In this document: positions 1,683 through 43,659 of the stretch, one piece after another | How positions within the stretch are numbered: the stretch's first letter is position 1 | Layout: every line of letters begins with the position of its first letter | Sequence record: NC_054922.1 | Reading direction: 5' to 3' (one strand) | Length of the DNA: 64,000 nt | Source of the DNA: Escherichia phage vB_EcoM_KAW1E185 | Notes under the pieces: generated by a model | The model's database searches: none | Told to the model about the DNA's origin: nothing | Seen by the model: only the letters and a program-made list of their open reading frames with translations | Translations under genes and position numbers: made by a program

Positions 1683-3248
1683 ATGACTATCAAAACTAAA
1701 GCTGAACTTTTGAACAAATGGAAACCATTACTGGAAGGTGAAGGTTTACCGGAAATTGCTAATAGCAAACAAGCGATTATCGCTAAAATCTTTGAAAACC
1801 AGGAAAAAGATTTCCAGACAGCTCCAGAGTACAAAGACGAAAAAATCGCTCAGGCGTTCGGTTCTTTCTTAACAGAAGCTGAAATCGGTGGTGACCACGG
1901 TTACAACGCTACTAACATCGCTGCTGGTCAGACTTCTGGCGCAGTAACTCAGATTGGCCCAGCTGTTATGGGTATGGTACGTCGTGCTATTCCTAACCTG
2001 ATTGCTTTCGATATTTGCGGTGTTCAGCCGATGAACAGCCCGACTGGCCAGGTATTCGCACTGCGCGCAGTATATGGTAAAGACCCAATCGCTGCCGGTG
2101 CTAAAGAAGCATTCCACCCAATGTATGGTCCAGATGCAATGTTCTCTGGTCAGGGTGCTGCTAAGAAATTCACAGCTCTGGCTGCTAGCACACAAACCAC
2201 AGTAGGTGATATCTATACTCACTTCTTCCAGGACACTGGTACTGTGTATCTGCAGGCTTCTGCTCAAGTAACAATTAGTTCTACTGCAGATGATGCAGCT
2301 AAATTAGATGCTGAAATTAAGAAACAAATGGAAGCTGGTGCACTGGTAGAAATCGCTGAAGGTATGGCTACTTCTATCGCTGAACTTCAGGAAAGTTTCA
2401 ACGGTTCTACCGATAACCCATGGAATGAAATGGGCTTCCGTATCGATAAACAAGTTATCGAAGCTAAATCTCGTCAGCTGAAAGCTGCTTACTCTATCGA
2501 ATTAGCACAAGACCTCCGCGCTGTTCACGGTATGGATGCTGATGCTGAACTGTCTGGTATTCTGGCTACCGAAATCATGCTGGAAATCAACCGCGAAGTT
2601 GTTGATTGGATTAACTACTCAGCTCAGGTTGGTAAATCTGGTATGACCCTGACTCCGGGTTCTAAAGCTGGTGTATTTGACTTCCAGGATCCGATTGATA
2701 TTCGTGGTGCTCGCTGGGCGGGTGAATCCTTTAAAGCTCTGTTGTTCCAGATTGACAAAGAAGCAGTTGAAATTGCTCGTCAGACCGGTCGCGGTGAAGG
2801 TAACTTCATTATCGCTTCCCGTAACGTAGTTAACGTTCTGGCTTCAGTTGATACTGGCATTTCTTATGCTGCACAGGGTCTGGCTACCGGCTTTAACACT
2901 GATACTACCAAGTCAGTATTTGCTGGTGTTCTGGGTGGTAAATACCGTGTATATATCGACCAGTATGCTAAACAGGATTATTTCACTGTAGGTTATAAAG
3001 GTCCGAACGAAATGGATGCTGGTATTTACTATGCTCCATATGTAGCTCTGACTCCGCTGCGTGGTTCCGATCCGAAGAACTTCCAACCAGTAATGGGATT
3101 CAAAACTCGTTACGGTATCGGTATCAACCCATTTGCAGAATCCGCTGCTCAGGCTCCGGCTTCTCGCATCCAGAGCGGTATGCCTTCTATTCTGAATAGC
3201 CTTGGTAAAAACGCTTACTTCCGCCGTGTATATGTTAAAGGTATCTAA
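1683..3248 (+). CDS. 23: Major capsid protein gp23
   Basis: 521-aa ORF recognised as T4 gp23 precursor; strong biased codon usage typical of a highly expressed late gene. Confidence 0.97.
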   Translation: MTIKTKAELLNKWKPLLEGEGLPEIANSKQAIIAKIFENQEKDFQTAPEYKDEKIAQAFGSFLTEAEIGGDHGYNATNIAAGQTSGAVTQIGPAVMGMVRRAIPNLIAFDICGVQPMNSPTGQVFALRAVYGKDPIAAGAKEAFHPMYGPDAMFSGQGAAKKFTALAASTQTTVGDIYTHFFQDTGTVYLQASAQVTISSTADDAAKLDAEIKKQMEAGALVEIAEGMATSIAELQESFNGSTDNPWNEMGFRIDKQVIEAKSRQLKAAYSIELAQDLRAVHGMDADAELSGILATEIMLEINREVVDWINYSAQVGKSGMTLTPGSKAGVFDFQDPIDIRGARWAGESFKALLFQIDKEAVEIARQTGRGEGNFIIASRNVVNVLASVDTGISYAAQGLATGFNTDTTKSVFAGVLGGKYRVYIDQYAKQDYFTVGYKGPNEMDAGIYYAPYVALTPLRGSDPKNFQPVMGFKTRYGIGINPFAESAAQAPASRIQSGMPSILNSLGKNAYFRRVYVKGI

Positions 3249-32237: not shown

Positions 32238-33825
<1,588 letters not shown>

Positions 33826-33832
33826 AATAAAA

Positions 33833-33848
33833 TGGGCCTTGCGGCCCA
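33833..33848 (-). terminator. Hairpin (GNRA loop) plus U-run between nrdB stop and denA start
   Basis: Minus-strand UGGGCC-GCAA-GGCCCA followed by UUUUAUU immediately 5' of the denA ATG. Confidence 0.45.
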
Positions 33849-33852
33849 CTCC

Positions 33853-35022
33853 TTAAAAATATTTTTTAAAACTCATCATAACTTTATCATCAACGTCATT
33901 ATCAATCTGTGCTACAAGATAAGATGACAGTTCTACTTCTTGCGGTGCAGATTGAACATTATCAGAATTAAGATATTCACGAATCCAAGGATACGGATGT
34001 TTAACCGGAGCATCAGTAATTGGGCATGGAAGACCACACTGTTTCATACGAGATACAGTTAAGTAATCAATAAAGCTCCACATGCTATTTGTATTTAATC
34101 CAGGAACATCGCCATCTTTAAATAAATGAACTGCCCAGTCTTTTTCTTGACGGTTAACTTCCATGAAAATATCAACTGCTTCTTGTTCACACTCTTGAGC
34201 AATTTTAACCCATTCATCACCATCAGTGCCAAGTTGAAGTTGACGAATAATATATTGGGTGCCTTTAAGGTGAAGCTGCTCATCACGTGCAATGAACTTC
34301 ATAATCTTGGCATTACCTTCCATGATTTCCATGTTCTTATGGAAGTTAAAGGTACATGCGAAAGATACATAAAAACGAATAGCTTCCAATGCGTTGATTA
34401 CGTGCAGGCAGAGGTAAAGAGATTTCATTAGTGCTCGTTTAGTACATTCAACAACTTTGCCTAGCTCTTCTTTACGAAATCCTTCTGATAAAATTCCTTC
34501 ATAATCTTCAACCGCATTCTGATATTCACGAGTCTTAACTAGAACGTCATCATAATAACGACCAATAGATTCAGCACGTTTCATGATAGCTTTATCTAAT
34601 ACAATCTCATCAAATACCTTTGATGGATCAGTATAAAGATTTCGCATGATATGAGTATATGAACGACTGTGAATAGTTTCGCTAAAAGTCCATGTAGCAA
34701 CCCATGTATCAAGACTTGGGTCTGAAATTAACGACATAAGTACAGCAGACGGCGCACGACCCTGAATGCTATCCAAAAGTGATTGATACTTCAGGTTATT
34801 AGTAAAAATATCTTGCTGATATTGAGGAAGCTTGTTAAATTGTGCAGCATCCATCATCAAGTTTACTTCTTCAGGACGCCAGAAAAATGATAAAGATTTC
34901 TCAATAAGTTCTTCAAATACTCTATGCCGTTGAATATCATATCGAGCTAAACCCAATCCAGAACCAAAAAACATCGGCTCAGTCAAAATATTAACAGGGG
35001 ATGTATTAAAAACTGTACTCAT
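33853..35022 (-). CDS. nrdB: Ribonucleotide reductase small subunit NrdB (uninterrupted)
   Basis: 389-aa continuous ORF recognised as T4 NrdB; no intron interrupts the frame. Confidence 0.93.
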   Translation of the reverse strand: MSTVFNTSPVNILTEPMFFGSGLGLARYDIQRHRVFEELIEKSLSFFWRPEEVNLMMDAAQFNKLPQYQQDIFTNNLKYQSLLDSIQGRAPSAVLMSLISDPSLDTWVATWTFSETIHSRSYTHIMRNLYTDPSKVFDEIVLDKAIMKRAESIGRYYDDVLVKTREYQNAVEDYEGILSEGFRKEELGKVVECTKRALMKSLYLCLHVINALEAIRFYVSFACTFNFHKNMEIMEGNAKIMKFIARDEQLHLKGTQYIIRQLQLGTDGDEWVKIAQECEQEAVDIFMEVNRQEKDWAVHLFKDGDVPGLNTNSMWSFIDYLTVSRMKQCGLPCPITDAPVKHPYPWIREYLNSDNVQSAPQEVELSSYLVAQIDNDVDDKVMMSFKKYF

Positions 35023-35660
35023 TTAGAATCCTTAAATTTACATTTATCATAATGCCATCTTAGAGCATTGCCTTTATTAACCTTCTTGCCACAATGCGGA
35101 CAAGGCGGATACTCTATACTTTGCTTAGTTCTCAAAGAAATCAAATCACGAGTTTCTTTAGTATGAGGAACATCTCTTGTTGGAGAGATTGTACCATACA
35201 TCGGATTAAGCACGCCGACTTTAGCAGCAGCTATATTCTTTTTAGCTTCTTCGGTTTTAGGTTTTCTCATGCGAGCTAAATGCTCTTTGGTAAATTTCCT
35301 TCCTTTAAGAGCTCTACTTATCTTTTCCCTGGTTTCTATAGAAACTTCACGTCCTATAGCAGCTTCAGATAAACGTCGTCTACCTAATTCGTATAGTTGA
35401 GAAGAAATTTTATATGAGCGATTTTTACCAGTCAAGCACATTAAACCAAAAGCTTTCTTTAATCCTGGGGTGTCATATATTTTGCATAAAAGCCAATGAG
35501 CTATAAAATGCTCTCTACCTGTTAATTCAACTAAATTTTCTTTATCATCAGAACCTCCCATACATCTAGGGATTATATGATGAGTCTCTTTATATTCAGA
35601 TAAAGGTTCCCGAGCCTGAGCTCGGGAAATTAGGTCATTATAGATTTTTTGATAATTCAT
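35019..35660 (-). CDS. mobE: HNH homing endonuclease (MobE-like)
   Basis: 213-aa ORF with HNH motif (HHIIPRCMGGSDDKENLVELTGREHFIAHW) and C-terminal CPHC zinc-finger-like element; inserted between nrdA and nrdB with ATGA couplings. Confidence 0.7.
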   Translation of the reverse strand: MNYQKIYNDLISRAQAREPLSEYKETHHIIPRCMGGSDDKENLVELTGREHFIAHWLLCKIYDTPGLKKAFGLMCLTGKNRSYKISSQLYELGRRRLSEAAIGREVSIETREKISRALKGRKFTKEHLARMRKPKTEEAKKNIAAAKVGVLNPMYGTISPTRDVPHTKETRDLISLRTKQSIEYPPCPHCGKKVNKGNALRWHYDKCKFKDSK

Positions 35661-37924
35661 TACAATTTACACGCTGCACAATCTTCAGCTTTTGGAGTTT
35701 CTATTTCATAATCATCAGTACCAGAACCATCGCGGGTATTATGATAATAGAAATTTTTTCCGCCAAAATACCAAAAATACAAAAGGTCATCAATCATTAT
35801 TGACATTGGAACCTTGCCTTTAGGGAAGATTTGGGGGTCATAGTATGTATTCGCCGAAGCTGATTGACAAACCCATTTCAGCATAATAGCTACCTGCGTA
35901 AGATAAGGTTTATTACCTTTCTTAGCTAATTTCCATGTATAGTCGTAAAGGTCTATGTTATGCTCAATATTGGGCACGACCTGATTAAAGGAGCCCTCTT
36001 TTGATTCTTTAACAGAGACTGGTCCACGTGGAGGCTCGATACCGTTTGTACTGTTAGAAACTTGGGAAGATGACTCACATGGCATAAGTGCTGATAATGT
36101 GCTATTACGGATGCCAAAGAGCTTAAGGTCTTCCCGCAGCGACGACCAGTCACAAACGTATTTTGGAGCTGCGATTTGGTCAATCTTTTTATTGTACCAG
36201 TCGATAGGTAATTCGCCTCGAGACCAACGAGTGTCTGAATAATATTCGCAAGGTCCTTTTTCTTTGGCGAGCTTAATGGATGCTTTAATGAGTCCATACT
36301 GCAATCTCTCAAATAGTTCATGTGTTAAATCGTTAGCATCTTCATAAGAAGCAAAATTACTTGCCAGCCAAGCTGCATAGTTAGTAACACCTACGCCGAG
36401 GTTTCGACGCTTTTTAGCTTTTTCTGCTTCAGGAACTGGATATCCTTGGTAGTCCAAAAGATTATCAAGAGCACGAACTTGAACTTCTGCCAATTCATTA
36501 ATTTTATCTTGGTCTTGCCAATCAAAGTTATCTAACACAAATGCAGATAACGTACACAATCCAATTTCAGCATCAGGACTATTCACGTCATTTGTTGGAA
36601 TAGCAATTTCACAACACAAGTTGCTCTGACGAATAGGTGCCTTTTCACGAATAAATGGAGTATAGTTATTCGTATTATCAATGAACTGTACATAAATCCT
36701 TGCTGTTCCTGAGCGTTCAGTCATTAGCAATTCAAACAGCTCACGGGCTTTAATACGCTTTTTACGAATATTAGGGTCTTTTTCTGCGGCTTCATATAAT
36801 TCACGGAAACGGTCTTGGTCTTTAAAATAAGAATAATAAAGCTCACCACCCATTTCATGTGGACTGAACAAAGTAATGTAATCGTTCTTTCCGAATCGTT
36901 CCATCATCAAATCATTCAGCTGAACACCATAATCCATATGACGAATTCGGTTTTCTTCTACGCCTTTGTTATTTTTCAAAACGAGAAGATTTTCAACTTC
37001 CAAATGCCAAATAGGATAATAAGCAGTAGCAGCGCCGCCACGAATTCCACCCTGTGAGCATGATTTAACAGCAGTCTGAAAATGTTTCCAAAAAGGAATA
37101 ACACCAGTATGACGTACTTCACCTGTACCAATCTTAGAACCTTCGGCACGAATCATACCAACGTTAATACCAATTCCAGCGCGTTTGGAGATATATTCAA
37201 CAATTGAAGCGGAAGCCTTATTGATAGACTTCAGCGAATCACCTGCCTCAATAACAACACATGAACTAAACTGTCGAGTCGGAGTACGACAACCAGCCAT
37301 AATAGGAGTTGGCAGTGAAATCTGTCGAGTAGATACTGCTTCATAAAAACGGATAACATGTTTTAATCTATCAACAGGTTCATCTTGATGCAGTGCCATT
37401 CCAATAGCCATAAATGCAAACTGTGGAGTTTCATAAATTTGACCAGTGGTTTTATCTTTAACTAGATATTTTTCTTTTAATTGCATCGCCCCGGAATAAG
37501 TAAATTCCATATCCCGCTCGTGCTTAATTTTTGATTCTAAAAATGTAATTTCTTCCGCAGAATATTTTGACAATAATTCAGGGTCATATTTACCTGCATT
37601 TACGCAATAAGAAATATGGTCAATAAATGAACGCGGTTCATACTGCCCGTAAACATGCTTACGAAGAGCAAACATTAAACAGCGTGCAGCTACATATTGA
37701 TAATCAGGCTCTTCAACCGAAATAGAATTCGCAGCAGCCTTAATGACAATAGTCTGAATATCATCAGTTGTCATTCCATCACGGAGATAAGATTTAATAT
37801 TTTCATATAATTCATAAGGATCTACTGATGTTCCCTCAGCTGCCCAAGATAAAACTTTAATAATTTTTTGTGGATCAAAGCTCTGAGAAACACCACTACT
37901 TTTGATAACATTAATTAATTGCAT
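35660..37924 (-). CDS. nrdA: Ribonucleotide reductase large subunit NrdA
   Basis: 754-aa ORF recognised as T4 NrdA. Confidence 0.95.
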   Translation of the reverse strand: MQLINVIKSSGVSQSFDPQKIIKVLSWAAEGTSVDPYELYENIKSYLRDGMTTDDIQTIVIKAAANSISVEEPDYQYVAARCLMFALRKHVYGQYEPRSFIDHISYCVNAGKYDPELLSKYSAEEITFLESKIKHERDMEFTYSGAMQLKEKYLVKDKTTGQIYETPQFAFMAIGMALHQDEPVDRLKHVIRFYEAVSTRQISLPTPIMAGCRTPTRQFSSCVVIEAGDSLKSINKASASIVEYISKRAGIGINVGMIRAEGSKIGTGEVRHTGVIPFWKHFQTAVKSCSQGGIRGGAATAYYPIWHLEVENLLVLKNNKGVEENRIRHMDYGVQLNDLMMERFGKNDYITLFSPHEMGGELYYSYFKDQDRFRELYEAAEKDPNIRKKRIKARELFELLMTERSGTARIYVQFIDNTNNYTPFIREKAPIRQSNLCCEIAIPTNDVNSPDAEIGLCTLSAFVLDNFDWQDQDKINELAEVQVRALDNLLDYQGYPVPEAEKAKKRRNLGVGVTNYAAWLASNFASYEDANDLTHELFERLQYGLIKASIKLAKEKGPCEYYSDTRWSRGELPIDWYNKKIDQIAAPKYVCDWSSLREDLKLFGIRNSTLSALMPCESSSQVSNSTNGIEPPRGPVSVKESKEGSFNQVVPNIEHNIDLYDYTWKLAKKGNKPYLTQVAIMLKWVCQSASANTYYDPQIFPKGKVPMSIMIDDLLYFWYFGGKNFYYHNTRDGSGTDDYEIETPKAEDCAACKL

Positions 37925-38241
37925 AAGTCCTCAACTTGAAAATCGTCTTTAAACAATCGGTTAACTATATGAGCTATTATATCACCATGACACGGCTTTG
38001 GTTTACATGTGCATCCTAGCCTCATTCCACGTAAAGGCTCTAAATGTGCTTTAGTTATTTCTCCGGATTTAATTCGACGTATAAAATCTTTTTTGAATAA
38101 TTCAATGGCAGCCTCCCGGCTGCCAGCATCTTTACCGACGTAATTTCCCCAAAATGTACCGCGGTGAATATTAACATCAAAGTCGGATTTGTATTTATTC
38201 ACTACCCGGCATAGACGGCCCACGCTGGAATAATTCGTCAT
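37915..38241 (-). CDS. Hypothetical protein, T4 nrdA.1-like
   Basis: 108-aa Cys/His-containing ORF. Confidence 0.5.
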
Positions 38242-38458
38242 ATTGTTTTTCCGTTAAAACAGTAATATCGTAGTAACAGTCAGAAGAAGTTTTAACTGTG
38301 GAAATTTTATTATCAAAATACTCACGAGTCATTTTATGAGTATAGTATTTTTTACCATAAATGGTAATAGGCTGTTCTGGTCCTGGAACTTCTAACTCGC
38401 TTGGGTTAGGAAGTGTAAAAAGAACAACGCCAGAAGTATCTTTAAATCGTAAAATCAT
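38195..38458 (-). CDS. Hypothetical protein, T4 nrdA.2-like
   Basis: 87-aa ORF. Confidence 0.45.
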
Positions 38459-39315
38459 ATTGCCATTTTCCCTTTAATTGCTGGATGCGATTCATAATTT
38501 TCAAGGATAAAATCTTTCGGTTTCATGTATTCAGTTAACCAGTAAAGCTGTGTTTCGGTGTCACAATTTCCAAACTCTATAGGCCAATCAATTTTAAGTT
38601 CACATAGTTCTTTAGGCTCACGACGTAAAATTTCTTTACATTGCTCAGTATGATTCATATAGATGTGAGTATTACCACCAGAAAATATCAAATCTCCTGG
38701 GATAAGATTACACATCTTAGCCACAATATGCGTCAAGGCAGCGTACGAGGCAATGTTGAATGGCAAGCCCAAGAAAACATCTACACTTCTTTGGTACCAT
38801 TGTAAATCAAGATAACCATTACGCACATTAAACTGATAGAACATATGACAGGGCGGTAATGCCATTTGATTGATTTCAGCTGGATTCCATGCTGAAACGA
38901 TTTGACGTCGATCAGTTGGTAATTTTTTAATACGATCAATAGTTTCAACTAATTGATCCACACCACCGAAATCACGCCATTGTTTACCGTATATAGGACC
39001 AAGTTCACCACTATGATATCCTAGGTCTTTAGCCTGGTTTTCATAGTTATCGTCCCAAATAGTTTTACCTTGAATAAGACTACCATGAGTGCGAAGACGT
39101 AAATCATTAACATTGGTAGAACCGGAAATAAACCATAGAAGCTCAGCAATGCATGCATTCCAGGCGAGCTTCTTAGTCGTTACTGCAGGAAAACCTTTAG
39201 TTAAATCCCAGCGTAATTTAGTACCGAACAAAGCAATTGTTCCTGTGCCTGTTCGGTCATCGGTTTCATAACCATTTTCAAAAATGTCTTTAATTAAATC
39301 TTGGTATTGTTTCAT
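38455..39315 (-). CDS. td: Thymidylate synthase (uninterrupted)
   Basis: 286-aa continuous ORF with catalytic PPCH motif; recognised as T4 Td; no intron. Confidence 0.95.
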
Positions 39316-39359
39316 TTAGTACCTTATATAAATTATAATACATTTTATGAAGCTAATAA

Positions 39360-39707
39360 TTAATACGGTTTAGCATCAAATTTTCTCTCAATTTCAGGCG
39401 TGAAATATAATTCTTTACCGCGTTTGGAAAAGCGACCAATAATATGATAATTATTCTCATCAAACGTGATATTACCAATATCCATAGCTTTCAACCAAAT
39501 ATCGATATTTCTATCCAGCTTTATGTCAAAATTCCAATACGGAGAACTATTACCGAAAATACTGCAAGCGGATTCAGTGAAACAACTGCTATAAATCTTG
39601 TCTTTAGGAACTACTAATTGATAGACACCTTTAATAAACTGAGGACCCTGCCACTTTGGCTGTTTCGCGTCTTTTTCTAATAGAATAGGGTAATAATTAA
39701 AATTCAT
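39360..39707 (-). CDS. Hypothetical protein between frd and td
   Basis: Track ORF of 119 aa begins with GTG; the internal ATG at 39705-39707 gives 115 aa; no recognisable motifs. Confidence 0.4.
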   Translation of the reverse strand: MNFNYYPILLEKDAKQPKWQGPQFIKGVYQLVVPKDKIYSSCFTESACSIFGNSSPYWNFDIKLDRNIDIWLKAMDIGNITFDENNYHIIGRFSKRGKELYFTPEIERKFDAKPY

Positions 39708-39727
39708 ATTTTCCGCCACGCGTTATT

Positions 39728-40557
<830 letters not shown>

Positions 40558-40568
40558 ATTATCTCCTA

Positions 40569-40901
40569 TTAAAAAGGATCAGGAACATATCCACTAGCTT
40601 TAATCATTTTAACTAATGTTACCATTCCTTTGTTAACTGCTTGTGAGATTTCATCAAAAACTTCATCATTAAAAAGTTCTAGCACACCCTTCTGAACTTT
40701 TAATTTACAGCCAACAATTTCGTCATCGCCTATAGTAAATTCATTACCGCCAATTCCACCGAAAAACTTAATTACCCCAGTTAACTGTCTTCCACGAGAA
40801 TATGGGTCATGTGATAAAGTAATATGAGTCACCCCAGGTACAGTTTTAAATTGACAGCGAATGTTTACTTGAGAAATTCCAGTTACATGAATGTCAGACA
40901 T
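40569..40901 (-). CDS. Hypothetical protein, T4 frd.2-like
   Basis: 110-aa ORF. Confidence 0.5.
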   Translation of the reverse strand: MSDIHVTGISQVNIRCQFKTVPGVTHITLSHDPYSRGRQLTGVIKFFGGIGGNEFTIGDDEIVGCKLKVQKGVLELFNDEVFDEISQAVNKGMVTLVKMIKASGYVPDPF

Positions 40902-40911
40902 AATATTTTCC

Positions 40912-41154
40912 TCAAACAGACTTTTTCACAGTTTTCCAATCAGCTTTAAACTGATCAACATCAGAATGGTAAATCCAGAATCCTGCGCTTTCTCCATCCT
41001 CATAAAGAGGGCATCCATCGCATTCATCTTCCCATCCCATATCACGCAAAAGACGTTCAGCTTTTTCAACGAGTTCAGAATCTTTACCGATGATATTAAA
41101 ATACCATTTACCTCTAACTTCTGAATCTTTGATGCTCTGGCGTTGTAATCTCAT
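40912..41154 (-). CDS. Hypothetical protein, T4 frd.3-like
   Basis: 80-aa ORF with CDGC motif. Confidence 0.5.
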   Translation of the reverse strand: MRLQRQSIKDSEVRGKWYFNIIGKDSELVEKAERLLRDMGWEDECDGCPLYEDGESAGFWIYHSDVDQFKADWKTVKKSV

Positions 41155-41208
41155 TTTATTCTCCTTAGTTGATAGGGTAATAGTATCACACTACTACCCT
41201 TCTGTAAA

Positions 41209-41574
41209 CTACTTTTTGAAAGTTTTTCGCAAAAGTTCAATGATTTCATCTACATTGTTTTCGTCAACAATGCAGTGAATTTTTGTTACGCCATAAACCT
41301 CGTCTTTGACTTCATCTTCTTCAGAAGTCGGTTCTTTATACTCACGAAAACAATGAAATTCATCTTCGCAGACGTTGAAGTAAAAATGCTTTCCATTGGC
41401 GCATTCTACGTGTTTTACTACTTTAAATCCATCAGCAAAGAAAACTTCTTTAACTTCAAACCATCCGCCATTTTCTTGAATAGCTTTAACTATTAATGAA
41501 TTAGAACGCGGGCGATAATTAATAAATGTATCAATAAGTCTTGGAACAAGTTCGTACTTTTTATCAATATACAT
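41209..41574 (-). CDS. Hypothetical protein
   Basis: 121-aa ORF. Confidence 0.45.
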   Translation of the reverse strand: MYIDKKYELVPRLIDTFINYRPRSNSLIVKAIQENGGWFEVKEVFFADGFKVVKHVECANGKHFYFNVCEDEFHCFREYKEPTSEEDEVKDEVYGVTKIHCIVDENNVDEIIELLRKTFKK

Positions 41575-41618
41575 TGTGTTTTCCTCATTTTAATAGGGGC
41601 TTGATAGCCCCTCGATAA

Positions 41619-41870
41619 TTACTGTTCAATCAATCCCATGTAAAATTCTGCATCTTCAGCATCCATACCATCACAGTATTCATTAGCCATAAATCGTTCA
41701 AGAACTTCTAAAGGACCTTCAATAACAATAGAAAAATTGCAATAATTGGGATCATCATGAATACTTGTGATACTAAGTTCAGGATAACGATTACGAATAA
41801 TTTCTTCAATATATTCAAAATCAACGATGTCAATATCAACTTTAGCCATATTGTTTTCCTCTTTAATCAT
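41619..41870 (-). CDS. Hypothetical acidic protein
   Basis: 83-aa ORF immediately downstream of an early promoter. Confidence 0.45.
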
Positions 41871-41890
41871 CAGCAGTATTGCCGATAGTT

Positions 41891-41922
41891 GTATAGTACC
41901 ACAGTATGCTTTGGTTGTAAAC
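41891..41922 (-). promoter_or_regulatory. Sigma70-type early promoter (-35 GTTTAC, -10 TACTATAC) with A/T-rich upstream element
   Basis: Minus strand aaaaatttttttttcacagaacgGTTTAC-aaccaaagcatactgtgg-TACTATAC; near-identical copy at 58475-58506. Confidence 0.5.
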
Positions 41923-41956
41923 CGTTCTGTGAAAAAAAAATTTTTGAAATAAAAAA

Positions 41957-41975
41957 GGGGACCTCTAGGGTCCCC
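41957..41975 (-). terminator. Rho-independent terminator after gene 32
   Basis: Minus-strand GGGGACC...GGUCCCC hairpin followed by UUUUUUAUUU. Confidence 0.6.
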
Positions 41976-41997
41976 AATTAATTAGTAATATAATCTA

Positions 41998-42906
41998 TTA
42001 AAGGTCATTCAAAAGGTCATCCAGGTCCGTGTCATCAGCACTAGATGAACTGCCAGAGCTTGAGCTCATAAAATCATCTTCAGTTTTTGTTTTGAAGTCA
42101 TCAACATTGAATGCATCCAAATCATCAGCAACTTTATCGGCTTTCTTAGCAGCAGTTGCTGCGGCACCACCCATAGCAGCAGTTCCCATAACTTGACTGA
42201 ACTTAGTGCTCAGTTCTTCAAACGATTTGAATTTATCTTTAGAAGTCATTTCAGAAAGGTCAACCATTTGTTCGAACAGTTCTTTCTGGAAAGATTCATC
42301 ATCAATGTTTGGAATCGCAGATTGATTCAGGAATTTAGATTCGTCGTAGTTACTAAATCCAGAAACTTGTTTAACTTTCAGTACAAAGTTAGCACCTTCC
42401 CACGGACAAGTTACATCAACTGGAGTTTCACCCATTTCAACATCAACCGCAATCATTGCATTGATTTTATCCCAGATTTTCTTACCGAAACGGTATTTAA
42501 ATACTTTACCTTCGTTTTCTGGAGCAGCTGGGTCTTTTACTACAAGAATGTTAGCCCAGTAAGAAGTTTTACGTTTAACAAGACTGTACTCTTTATTGTC
42601 AGTGTTGTACAGATCATTTTTACTAATGTATTGACATACTGGGCAAGAATCGTAATCACCGTGGGTAGATGAACAGTTTTCAATATACCATTTACCATTT
42701 TTCTTGAAACCGTGATTTACAAGAATTGCGAATGGTGCTTGTTCATCATTTTTAGACGGAAGAAAACGAATTACTGCTTGACCGTTACCCGCATTGTCGA
42801 GTTTCAGTTTCCACTCGCCTTTATCTTCAGAAGAAAAACCACCTTTATTTCCAGCCAGTTTAGCCATTTGTGCAGCGAGTTCAGCAGTAGATTTACGTTT
42901 AAACAT
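41998..42906 (-). CDS. 32: Single-stranded DNA-binding protein gp32
   Basis: 302-aa ORF recognised as T4 gp32, including the acidic Ser/Asp-rich C-terminal tail. Confidence 0.95.
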
Positions 42907-42989
42907 TTTTATTTCCTTTTTAATTTAATTAACAGTTGGTGCTATGACGATGTATGACCTCATAGCTGGTCAGTGAGATAATTATAATC

Positions 42990-42997
42990 TATTTATA
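42990..42997 (-). promoter_or_regulatory. Late promoter TATAAATA in the gene 32 upstream region
   Basis: Reverse complement gives TATAAATA about 85 nt upstream of the gp32 ATG. Confidence 0.4.
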
Positions 42998-43005
42998 ATA
43001 AGCAA

Positions 43006-43659
43006 TTAATACTTACAAGATTTCACAGTTTCAATGAAAACACTTTTAGCTTTCTGTGAATCAATATTTAAAATTTTTCTATAAGCCTTTAACTTTATAG
43101 AATAATTATTCCAGACTAAATTATCAGTCTGTTCATCATGTTTATCAATTATATTTAAAAATGAATCAAGCAAGATAAACGTCTCAAACGAAATTATGTT
43201 CGACTGAAGCAGTTTAAAAATATAACTTGATTGAACTTTTGGATTATATTCAAAAATTTCTTTAAAAGCAGAAACTTCAACTTTTTTACTAAAATAATAA
43301 ATGTTGCGAATATCTTCTTCAAACTTAAATTTAATTTGCTTTAAGCGTCCGATATATTCACGATAAAACACAAGTGCATCAGCGTCAGAGATGTCACCAA
43401 TCCAAGCATCTTGGTTAGCAACCAAATTACTTATAAAGATTAAAGCAAGTTCCTTTAATTTATATTTTTCTGATAACTTCTGGAAAAAATACTTATCCCT
43501 TCGCTTTTGATAAGCGGCATCAGACACCCGCATGCACCAATTATACTTAATTACATCATACTTTCCATTCATATGTTGTTTTATCATTAAGTATAATTTA
43601 TAAACTGATTTACCATCAATGTATCTTTCACCACCAGCAGGCATGCGGAGTTTAATCAT
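43006..43659 (-). CDS. 59: gp59 helicase loader
   Basis: 217-aa ORF; T4 length and position directly upstream of gene 32, with no intervening seg gene. Confidence 0.9.
   Translation of the reverse strand: MIKLRMPAGGERYIDGKSVYKLYLMIKQHMNGKYDVIKYNWCMRVSDAAYQKRRDKYFFQKLSEKYKLKELALIFISNLVANQDAWIGDISDADALVFYREYIGRLKQIKFKFEEDIRNIYYFSKKVEVSAFKEIFEYNPKVQSSYIFKLLQSNIISFETFILLDSFLNIIDKHDEQTDNLVWNNYSIKLKAYRKILNIDSQKAKSVFIETVKSCKY

Follow-up and report, generated by a model that had tools for sequence, protein, structure and literature searches.

The interval between the dihydrofolate reductase (frd) and thymidylate synthase (td) genes of Escherichia phage vB_EcoM_KAW1E185 (NC_054922.1) contains a small open reading frame, here termed ORF-X, which is a real gene, coding for protein and subject to purifying selection; it is the allele of the T2/T6 type at this polymorphic junction. 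The textbook ATGA overlap of frd and td in T4 appears, by comparison with related genomes, to be a secondary deletion product. Taken as a whole, the explanation in which a coding T2/T6-type allele, deleted in T4, is co-transcribed with frd and td and performs an accessory role (the last element being a guess) is given a probability of roughly 0.7. The interest of the locus is modest and specialist, residing in a cassette of small genes (X, Y, and Z) at this position, the origin of the T4 overlap, and a mislabelled annotation. All coordinates without a phage name refer to the window, the whole 64,000-nt stretch of DNA analyzed here.

Organization of the frd-td junction

All genes of this region lie on the minus strand, in the order gene 32, five small ORFs, frd, ORF-X, td, homologues of nrdA.2 and nrdA.1, and nrdA. 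The frd gene (39728-40309; 193 aa; Pfam DHFR_1, E = 1.7e-18) ends in ...TESVYK-TGA, with a C-terminus identical to that of T4 Frd, and td (38455-39315; 286 aa) matches Pfam Thymidylat_synt over its full length (E = 7e-96). Between the frd stop codon (TGA, 39728-39730) and the td ATG (39313-39315) lie 412 nt (39316-39727), in which the first-pass annotation had placed an ORF of about 115 aa with either an ATG or a GTG start. This ORF is present: ORF-X (PHROG 1928; pI 8.5; a predicted small beta-barrel) extends over 39360-39707 and encodes 115 aa from its ATG (MNFNYY...), the start found in homologues and database entries, while an upstream GTG would lengthen it to 119 aa (39360-39719). A 20-nt spacer (AATAACGCGTGGCGGAAAAT, 39708-39727) separates frd from ORF-X and includes a Shine-Dalgarno-like GGCGG (39713-39717) 5 nt upstream of the ATG. 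The 44-nt spacer between ORF-X and td (39316-39359) holds the Shine-Dalgarno-like AAGG of td (39322-39325) and a 28-nt promoter-like element (TAGCTTCATAAAATGTATTATAATTTAT, 39328-39355) that is absent from phages REP1 and Shf125875. A 9-bp direct repeat, TAAATGAAA, is found at both ends of the interval, its left copy (39726-39734) spanning the frd stop codon and its right copy (39310-39318) the td start codon. No RNA family was matched in an Rfam search of positions 33000-43000.

The surroundings of the junction also differ from T4. Between the frd.1 homologue (40912-41154, minus strand, DUF5417) and frd lie two further small minus-strand ORFs, neither of which is in the T4 annotation: one of 110 aa (40569-40901; DUF7247) and one of 81 aa (40312-40557; phrog_3183) that overlaps the frd start. 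Five phages with a T4-type junction (vB_EcoM_112, G28, F1, FL12, and FL18) carry a 246-nt (81-aa) ORF abutting the frd start at the same position. Gene 32 (41998-42906) is directly followed by gene 59 (43006-43659), and the homing endonuclease gene segG, which lies beside gene 32 in T4, is absent.

Distribution of ORF-X in phages

At the DNA level, the junction is 100% identical to that of Escherichia phage vB_EcoM_R5505, and the ORF-X protein is 100% identical to a protein of phage T2. A tblastn search recovered the protein from 579 phage records, which fall into 361 Tequatrovirus records at 90% identity or more (including T2 and T6) and 218 records below 60% identity from phages of Klebsiella, Enterobacter, Salmonella, Citrobacter, Serratia, Erwinia, Edwardsiella, and others. 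Homologues are present in about 70% of Tequatrovirus records. In T2, T6, RB32 (ORF229c), and some 360 other Tequatrovirus records the gene is a hypothetical protein in the same frd-td position, with no difference from the arrangement described here; with such entries for ORF-X already in hundreds of genomes, the finding is in this respect largely ordinary.

Gene order was inspected in nine diverged records, representing Kanagawavirus (Entb_45 and PEi26), Jiaodavirus (ValerieMcCarty04), Roskildevirus (Cronus), Moonvirus (Moon), Winklervirus (CHI14), and Gelderlandvirus (STML-198), together with Klebsiella phage Biddle and the Mosigvirus-labelled Shf125875. The ORF-X homologue immediately follows frd in eight of the nine and usually overlaps its upstream neighbour. 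The exception is Cronus, in which a 144-aa ORF resembling Y (see below) intervenes between frd and X. The same synteny occurs in two metagenome contigs, one of them with a complete frd-X-Y-Z-td series, and at least eight named genera of the Tevenvirinae have the gene immediately behind frd. Identity between genera is 32-43% for X versus 46-55% for frd, so that X diverges roughly in step with frd, a pattern that fits vertical descent. In Enterobacter phage Entb_45 (2002-2516), frd is annotated as two pseudogene fragments, and X, Y, Z, and td are intact.

Among protein profiles, ORF-X matches the uncharacterized phrog_1928 over its full length (E = 9.5e-36; residues 8-115 aligned with profile positions 2-125 of 126). 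A word-indexed protein search proved insensitive (3, then 9 matches), making an exhaustive profile search necessary; across 1.84 billion representative proteins, this search returned only 42 clusters. Each of the 42 representatives is a fragment or a stand-alone protein, 37-139 aa long (95-139 aa in 39 cases), and no larger fusion protein is among them; those with names belong to T4-like phages of Enterobacterales.

The X-Y-Z cassette and the junction alleles

In many genera (e.g., Kanagawavirus, Moonvirus, Winklervirus, and Gelderlandvirus), X is followed by a second ORF, Y, of 113-131 aa. Proteins of the Y type are found among the 1.84 billion proteins by a profile built from X only (E = 2e-12 to 5e-4); Y itself matches phrog_1928 (E = 1.6e-37), has the same predicted fold family, and has the motifs QKKW, HGIY, GN, and GRFxKxGxxxxF in common with X. 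The shared PHROG and motifs indicate that X and Y are paralogues, although Y differs from X in an additional stretch of about 20 aa (PTIxxYKxNPxxY) after QKKW. The order of the paralogues is not fixed, since the Y-like relative in Erwinia phage Cronus (2059-2493) lies upstream rather than downstream of X. Y is absent from the window and from all Tequatrovirus records found. A third ORF, Z (68 aa, phrog_9550), is unrelated to X and Y and is located just before td in some phages. A 32-kb metagenome contig, the source of the nearest outgroup sequence to the Tequatrovirus X (63% identity), contains the full frd-X-Y-Z-td series, with ATGA overlaps at frd/X, Y/Z, and Z/td.

Within Tequatrovirus, the junction occurs as three alleles. 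The X-only allele is found in about 361 records, including T2, T6, and the window. The Z allele, exemplified by phage Paracelsus (1213-1419) and present in about 135 other Tequatrovirus records (a quarter), has a 68-aa basic ORF overlapping both frd and td. The T4-type allele has no ORF and is confined to 32 of about 520 records, comprising T4 strains and about a dozen other phages; T4 is the annotation reference, yet at this junction it is the odd one out. Unrelated large myoviruses (Phapecoctavirus) also have homologues of Z, with about 42% identity, and one record labels Z a 'flagellar biosynthesis protein', a label that looks wrong.

Predicted structure and possible function

The lack of a recognizable motif in ORF-X reported at first pass is borne out by Pfam (E up to 1), NCBIfam, and PADLOC searches, none of which gave a match for ORF-X or, so far as they were applied, for Y and Z, and sequence-profile searches of the PDB with two alignments yielded chance-level matches only (E at least 0.016). 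An AlphaFold model based on an alignment of 44 sequences is confident (pLDDT 91.3, pTM 0.84) and places strands at residues 6-12, 27-34, 38-40, 48-50, 62-64, 80-82, 86-96, and 99-104, with a single helix (68-77) preceding the last long hairpin. The order of these elements fits that of an OB-fold (a closed five-stranded barrel with a helix between strands 3 and 4), a comparison of element order alone, and the nucleic-acid-binding OB-fold domains regarded as closest are HIN, RPA/Teb1, Cdc13, S1, and the N-terminal domain of RecO; the model gave no significant structural superposition on known OB folds. Foldseek comparison with viral models retrieved only uncharacterized proteins of T4-like phages. 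The family is mildly basic (median pI 8.8), and its conserved residues are mainly aromatic, basic, or glycine (Q16, K18, W19, Y29, G78-N79, G91-R92-F93-x-K95-x-G97, F102, and P104). The product would be a soluble, slightly basic protein of 13 kDa, predicted to form a compact beta-barrel capped by one helix and to have no catalytic motif.

In the literature library searched, no paper mentioned the gene, its locus tags, or the junction, and no published function for ORF-X was found; one preprint (bioRxiv 10.1101/2022.07.19.500537) dealt with T5 genes and had no bearing on it. On the basis of its small size, the lack of a catalytic motif, and the aromatic, basic, and glycine signature on the barrel, it is taken to be a binding protein. 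A possible but tentative suggestion is that it serves as an accessory or adaptor of the dihydrofolate reductase/thymidylate synthase (dNTP-synthesis) module, with a partner protein or single-stranded nucleic acid as its ligand. Any role must be dispensable, given that T4 and about a dozen other phages do without X and that Z takes its place in a quarter of Tequatroviruses. A more specific and rather unlikely extension is that X and Y form an undescribed family of small beta-barrels tying dihydrofolate reductase and thymidylate synthase to the dNTP-synthesis/replication complex or to nucleic acid; if so, T4, the model phage for the dNTP-synthesis complex, would be a natural knock-out of the X-Y-Z cassette.

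A role in host takeover or anti-defence, as a small early protein that would bind and neutralize a host factor or an anti-phage system, with the position between frd and td serving for early expression only, is doubtful in itself and about as likely as the accessory role in the dNTP module. The presence of X, Z, or nothing at the junction among very close relatives would suit such a protein, as would its small size, the lack of an enzymatic motif, the restriction of the family to phages, and the other variable small ORFs nearby. Set against this are the constant location across at least eight genera and the divergence in step with frd, which are steadier than is typical of counter-defence genes, and the fact that neither PADLOC nor any other match ties ORF-X to a defence system. 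Whichever role applies, the X/Y family is conserved, under purifying selection, and confidently predicted to have a fold with no known structural relative, making it a reasonable, if not urgent, target for functional work on nucleotide synthesis in these phages.

Direction of change at the junction

The overlap of the frd stop and the td start in T4, an arrangement for translational coupling, is correctly described in the first-pass annotation: in the T4 reference (NC_000866), frd occupies 145109-145690 and td starts at 145112, giving a 4-nt ATGA overlap with no ORF between the genes. T4 and the window share the flanking genes and the last frd codons (TAT AAA TGA), and differ in that the genes of the window are 412 nt apart and the downstream genes each have their own Shine-Dalgarno-like sequence. 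The segment present here and missing in T4 measures 416 bp and is flanked by the perfect 9-bp direct repeat, of which T4 has a single copy that constitutes its frd/td junction. Taken alone, the repeat could result from a deletion or from an insertion accompanied by duplication.

The spacer between frd and ORF-X is more informative. Apart from two extra A residues in an A-run of Shf125875, its 20 nt can be aligned with the frd tail of that phage without a mismatch. The Shf125875 frd continues as ...YKNEIATGGKYEF-stop and overlaps X by 11 nt (TATGAATTTTAA), and frd in the outgroup contig L014 ends in the same overlap with X. This alignment and the L014 overlap suggest that the spacer in the window is a frameshifted remnant of an older, longer frd tail, in which case X was already present when frd was shortened to ...VYK-TGA. 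Because T4 shares the derived frd stop and then runs into td, its junction would descend from an X-bearing allele by deletion. The proposed course of events is an early 2-nt change that shortened frd, followed by a 416-bp deletion between the two copies of TAAATGAAA that produced the T4 arrangement.

The reverse course, in which ORF-X was gained in Tequatrovirus by illegitimate recombination into a T4-type ATGA junction with duplication of 9 bp, is improbable. It would account for the perfect repeat flanking the 416-bp segment, and for segment borders that are spaced from frd and td instead of overlapping them as in other genera. However, a left spacer matching the Shf125875 frd tail but for a 2-nt indel is what would be expected if X pre-existed, X occupies the same place in all outgroups, and the T4-type junction is a minority type (32 of about 520 records); bringing X back into such a junction, with 9 bp duplicated, would also be less parsimonious than deletion. 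From these comparisons, we infer that T4 is a deletion derivative and that the window is not an insertion derivative, a reading that is well supported but not proven, since T4-like phages recombine freely and the deletion scenario draws on a handful of sequences from this highly recombining group. Of the 'small accessory insertion' originally proposed, the accessory character survives, as T4 and other viable phages lack ORF-X. The insertion does not, the segment having apparently been deleted in T4: eight or more genera and about 70% of Tequatrovirus records have the gene right behind frd, and the spacer is best read as a relic of the frd tail.

Annotation as a homing endonuclease

Intergenic homing endonuclease genes are plentiful in T-even phages (PMC2988022), and GenBank records of FriedrichMiescher, FriedrichZschokke, and ValerieMcCarty04 (MZ501067 among the records concerned) label the ORF-X homologue a 'putative homing endonuclease'. 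ORF-X resembles the seg and mob genes of T-even phages in its small size, its place between conserved genes, and its presence or absence among close relatives, and the junction is polymorphic. It is nevertheless very improbable that ORF-X is a free-standing homing endonuclease, or the remnant of one, inserted between frd and td. None of the 44 family members contains a GIY-YIG, HNH, LAGLIDADG, or other Pfam domain, the BLASTP comparison of ORF-X with I-TevI gives E = 2.8, and no nuclease appears among the structural neighbours. In contrast to the sporadic occurrence expected of such elements, ORF-X is syntenic across genera, with a divergence that tracks frd. The same searches readily detect a real homing endonuclease ORF with HNH and NUMOD3 domains at 35019-35660.

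The label is unsupported in view of the missing nuclease domain, the I-TevI comparison, and the stable syntenic inheritance, and should be dropped for this gene. It likely originated in position-based transfer from T4, where I-TevI adjoins td exon 1. The record of JLBYU24 annotates the ORF-X homologue as a 'putative dihydrofolate reductase', which is likewise unsupported. The endonuclease ORF at 35019-35660 (minus strand, 213 aa) lies between nrdA and nrdB and matches the homing endonuclease family phrog_655 (E = 1e-66); T4 has mobE and nrdB.1 at this site, and the ORF in the window is probably a different free-standing homing endonuclease.

Evidence for coding and purifying selection

Codon usage, scored as log-odds with the window's 25 longest ORFs as the training set, gives ORF-X +0.13 bits/codon in its own frame; the other five frames range from -0.47 to -1.49, and the neighbouring genes from -0.18 to +0.31. 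Compared with the 94% identical Shf125875 allele, ORF-X shows 29 synonymous and nine non-synonymous differences (dN/dS 0.047), and all three differences from phage REP1 are synonymous. Residues W19, G91, K95, and G97 are invariant among proteins of only 27-48% identity, and L9, G27, Y29, F93, and F102 are near-invariant across homologues. Both coding signals at issue for this ORF are present, namely frame-specific codon usage and a putative ribosome-binding site (the GGCGG 5 nt before the ATG). An unexpressed reading frame that arose by chance in AT-rich spacer DNA has a practically negligible probability: the codon usage, the dN/dS value, the invariant residues, and the confident structure prediction all speak against it.

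Expression signals and the spacer upstream of td

ORF-X would be transcribed leftward with frd and td in an early/middle nucleotide-precursor unit and translated from its own GGCGG ribosome-binding site. Upstream of td, a promoter-like TATAAT had been noted at first pass; the sequence is there (39332-39337, 16 nt before the td ATG), but a sigma-70 scan called no promoter at it, the -35 hexamer being missing. REP1 and Shf125875 have a spacer of 13-14 nt here, to which the 44-nt spacer of the window adds a 28-nt piece, and this piece, missing from some X alleles (REP1 and Shf125875), is the only part of the interval that looks inserted when the alleles are compared. It contains a MotA-box-like GCTTCA (39348-39353), with TATAAT downstream at a spacing of 10 nt, or TAATTT at 12 nt. 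In the MotA middle promoters of T4-type phages, the box (a/t)(a/t)(a/t)TGCTT(t/c)A precedes a TAnnnT -10 element by about 12 nt, and TTAGCTTCA has one core mismatch to the consensus of the box. The 28-nt element occurs once in the window, in which a relaxed MotA pattern has 19 occurrences versus 9.4 expected. The element is a plausible candidate for a MotA-type middle promoter of td. The spacer between ORF-X and td folds no better than shuffled sequences (z = 0.56).

The td intron and the junction

The td gene of the window is uninterrupted and lacks the group I intron and I-TevI of T4, in which td is joined from two pieces around I-TevI. With its uninterrupted td, this phage would be a recipient for I-TevI homing. 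The nrdB gene (33853-35022, minus strand, 389 aa) is also uninterrupted; T4 has introns in both td and nrdB.

A td intron is present in at least 167 records, in company with all three junction alleles. Mutual exclusion of X and the intron was considered and rejected, as T6, PST, NBG2, and others carry both. The T4 strains combine a T4-type junction with the intron, and so do 10 of 11 further phages checked; a strict association was also rejected, because the td gene of FL12 has no intron although its junction is of the T4 type. About 550 bp separate the junction from the td intron site, and exon co-conversion takes place during intron homing (PMC2988022); the T4-type junction may possibly have hitchhiked with the intron by this route. 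In vB_EcoM_112, G28, F1, and FL18 (at about 2570-3008), the td intron is short (about 440 nt) and contains a 55-aa remnant of I-TevI, compared with the 245 aa of the T4 protein.
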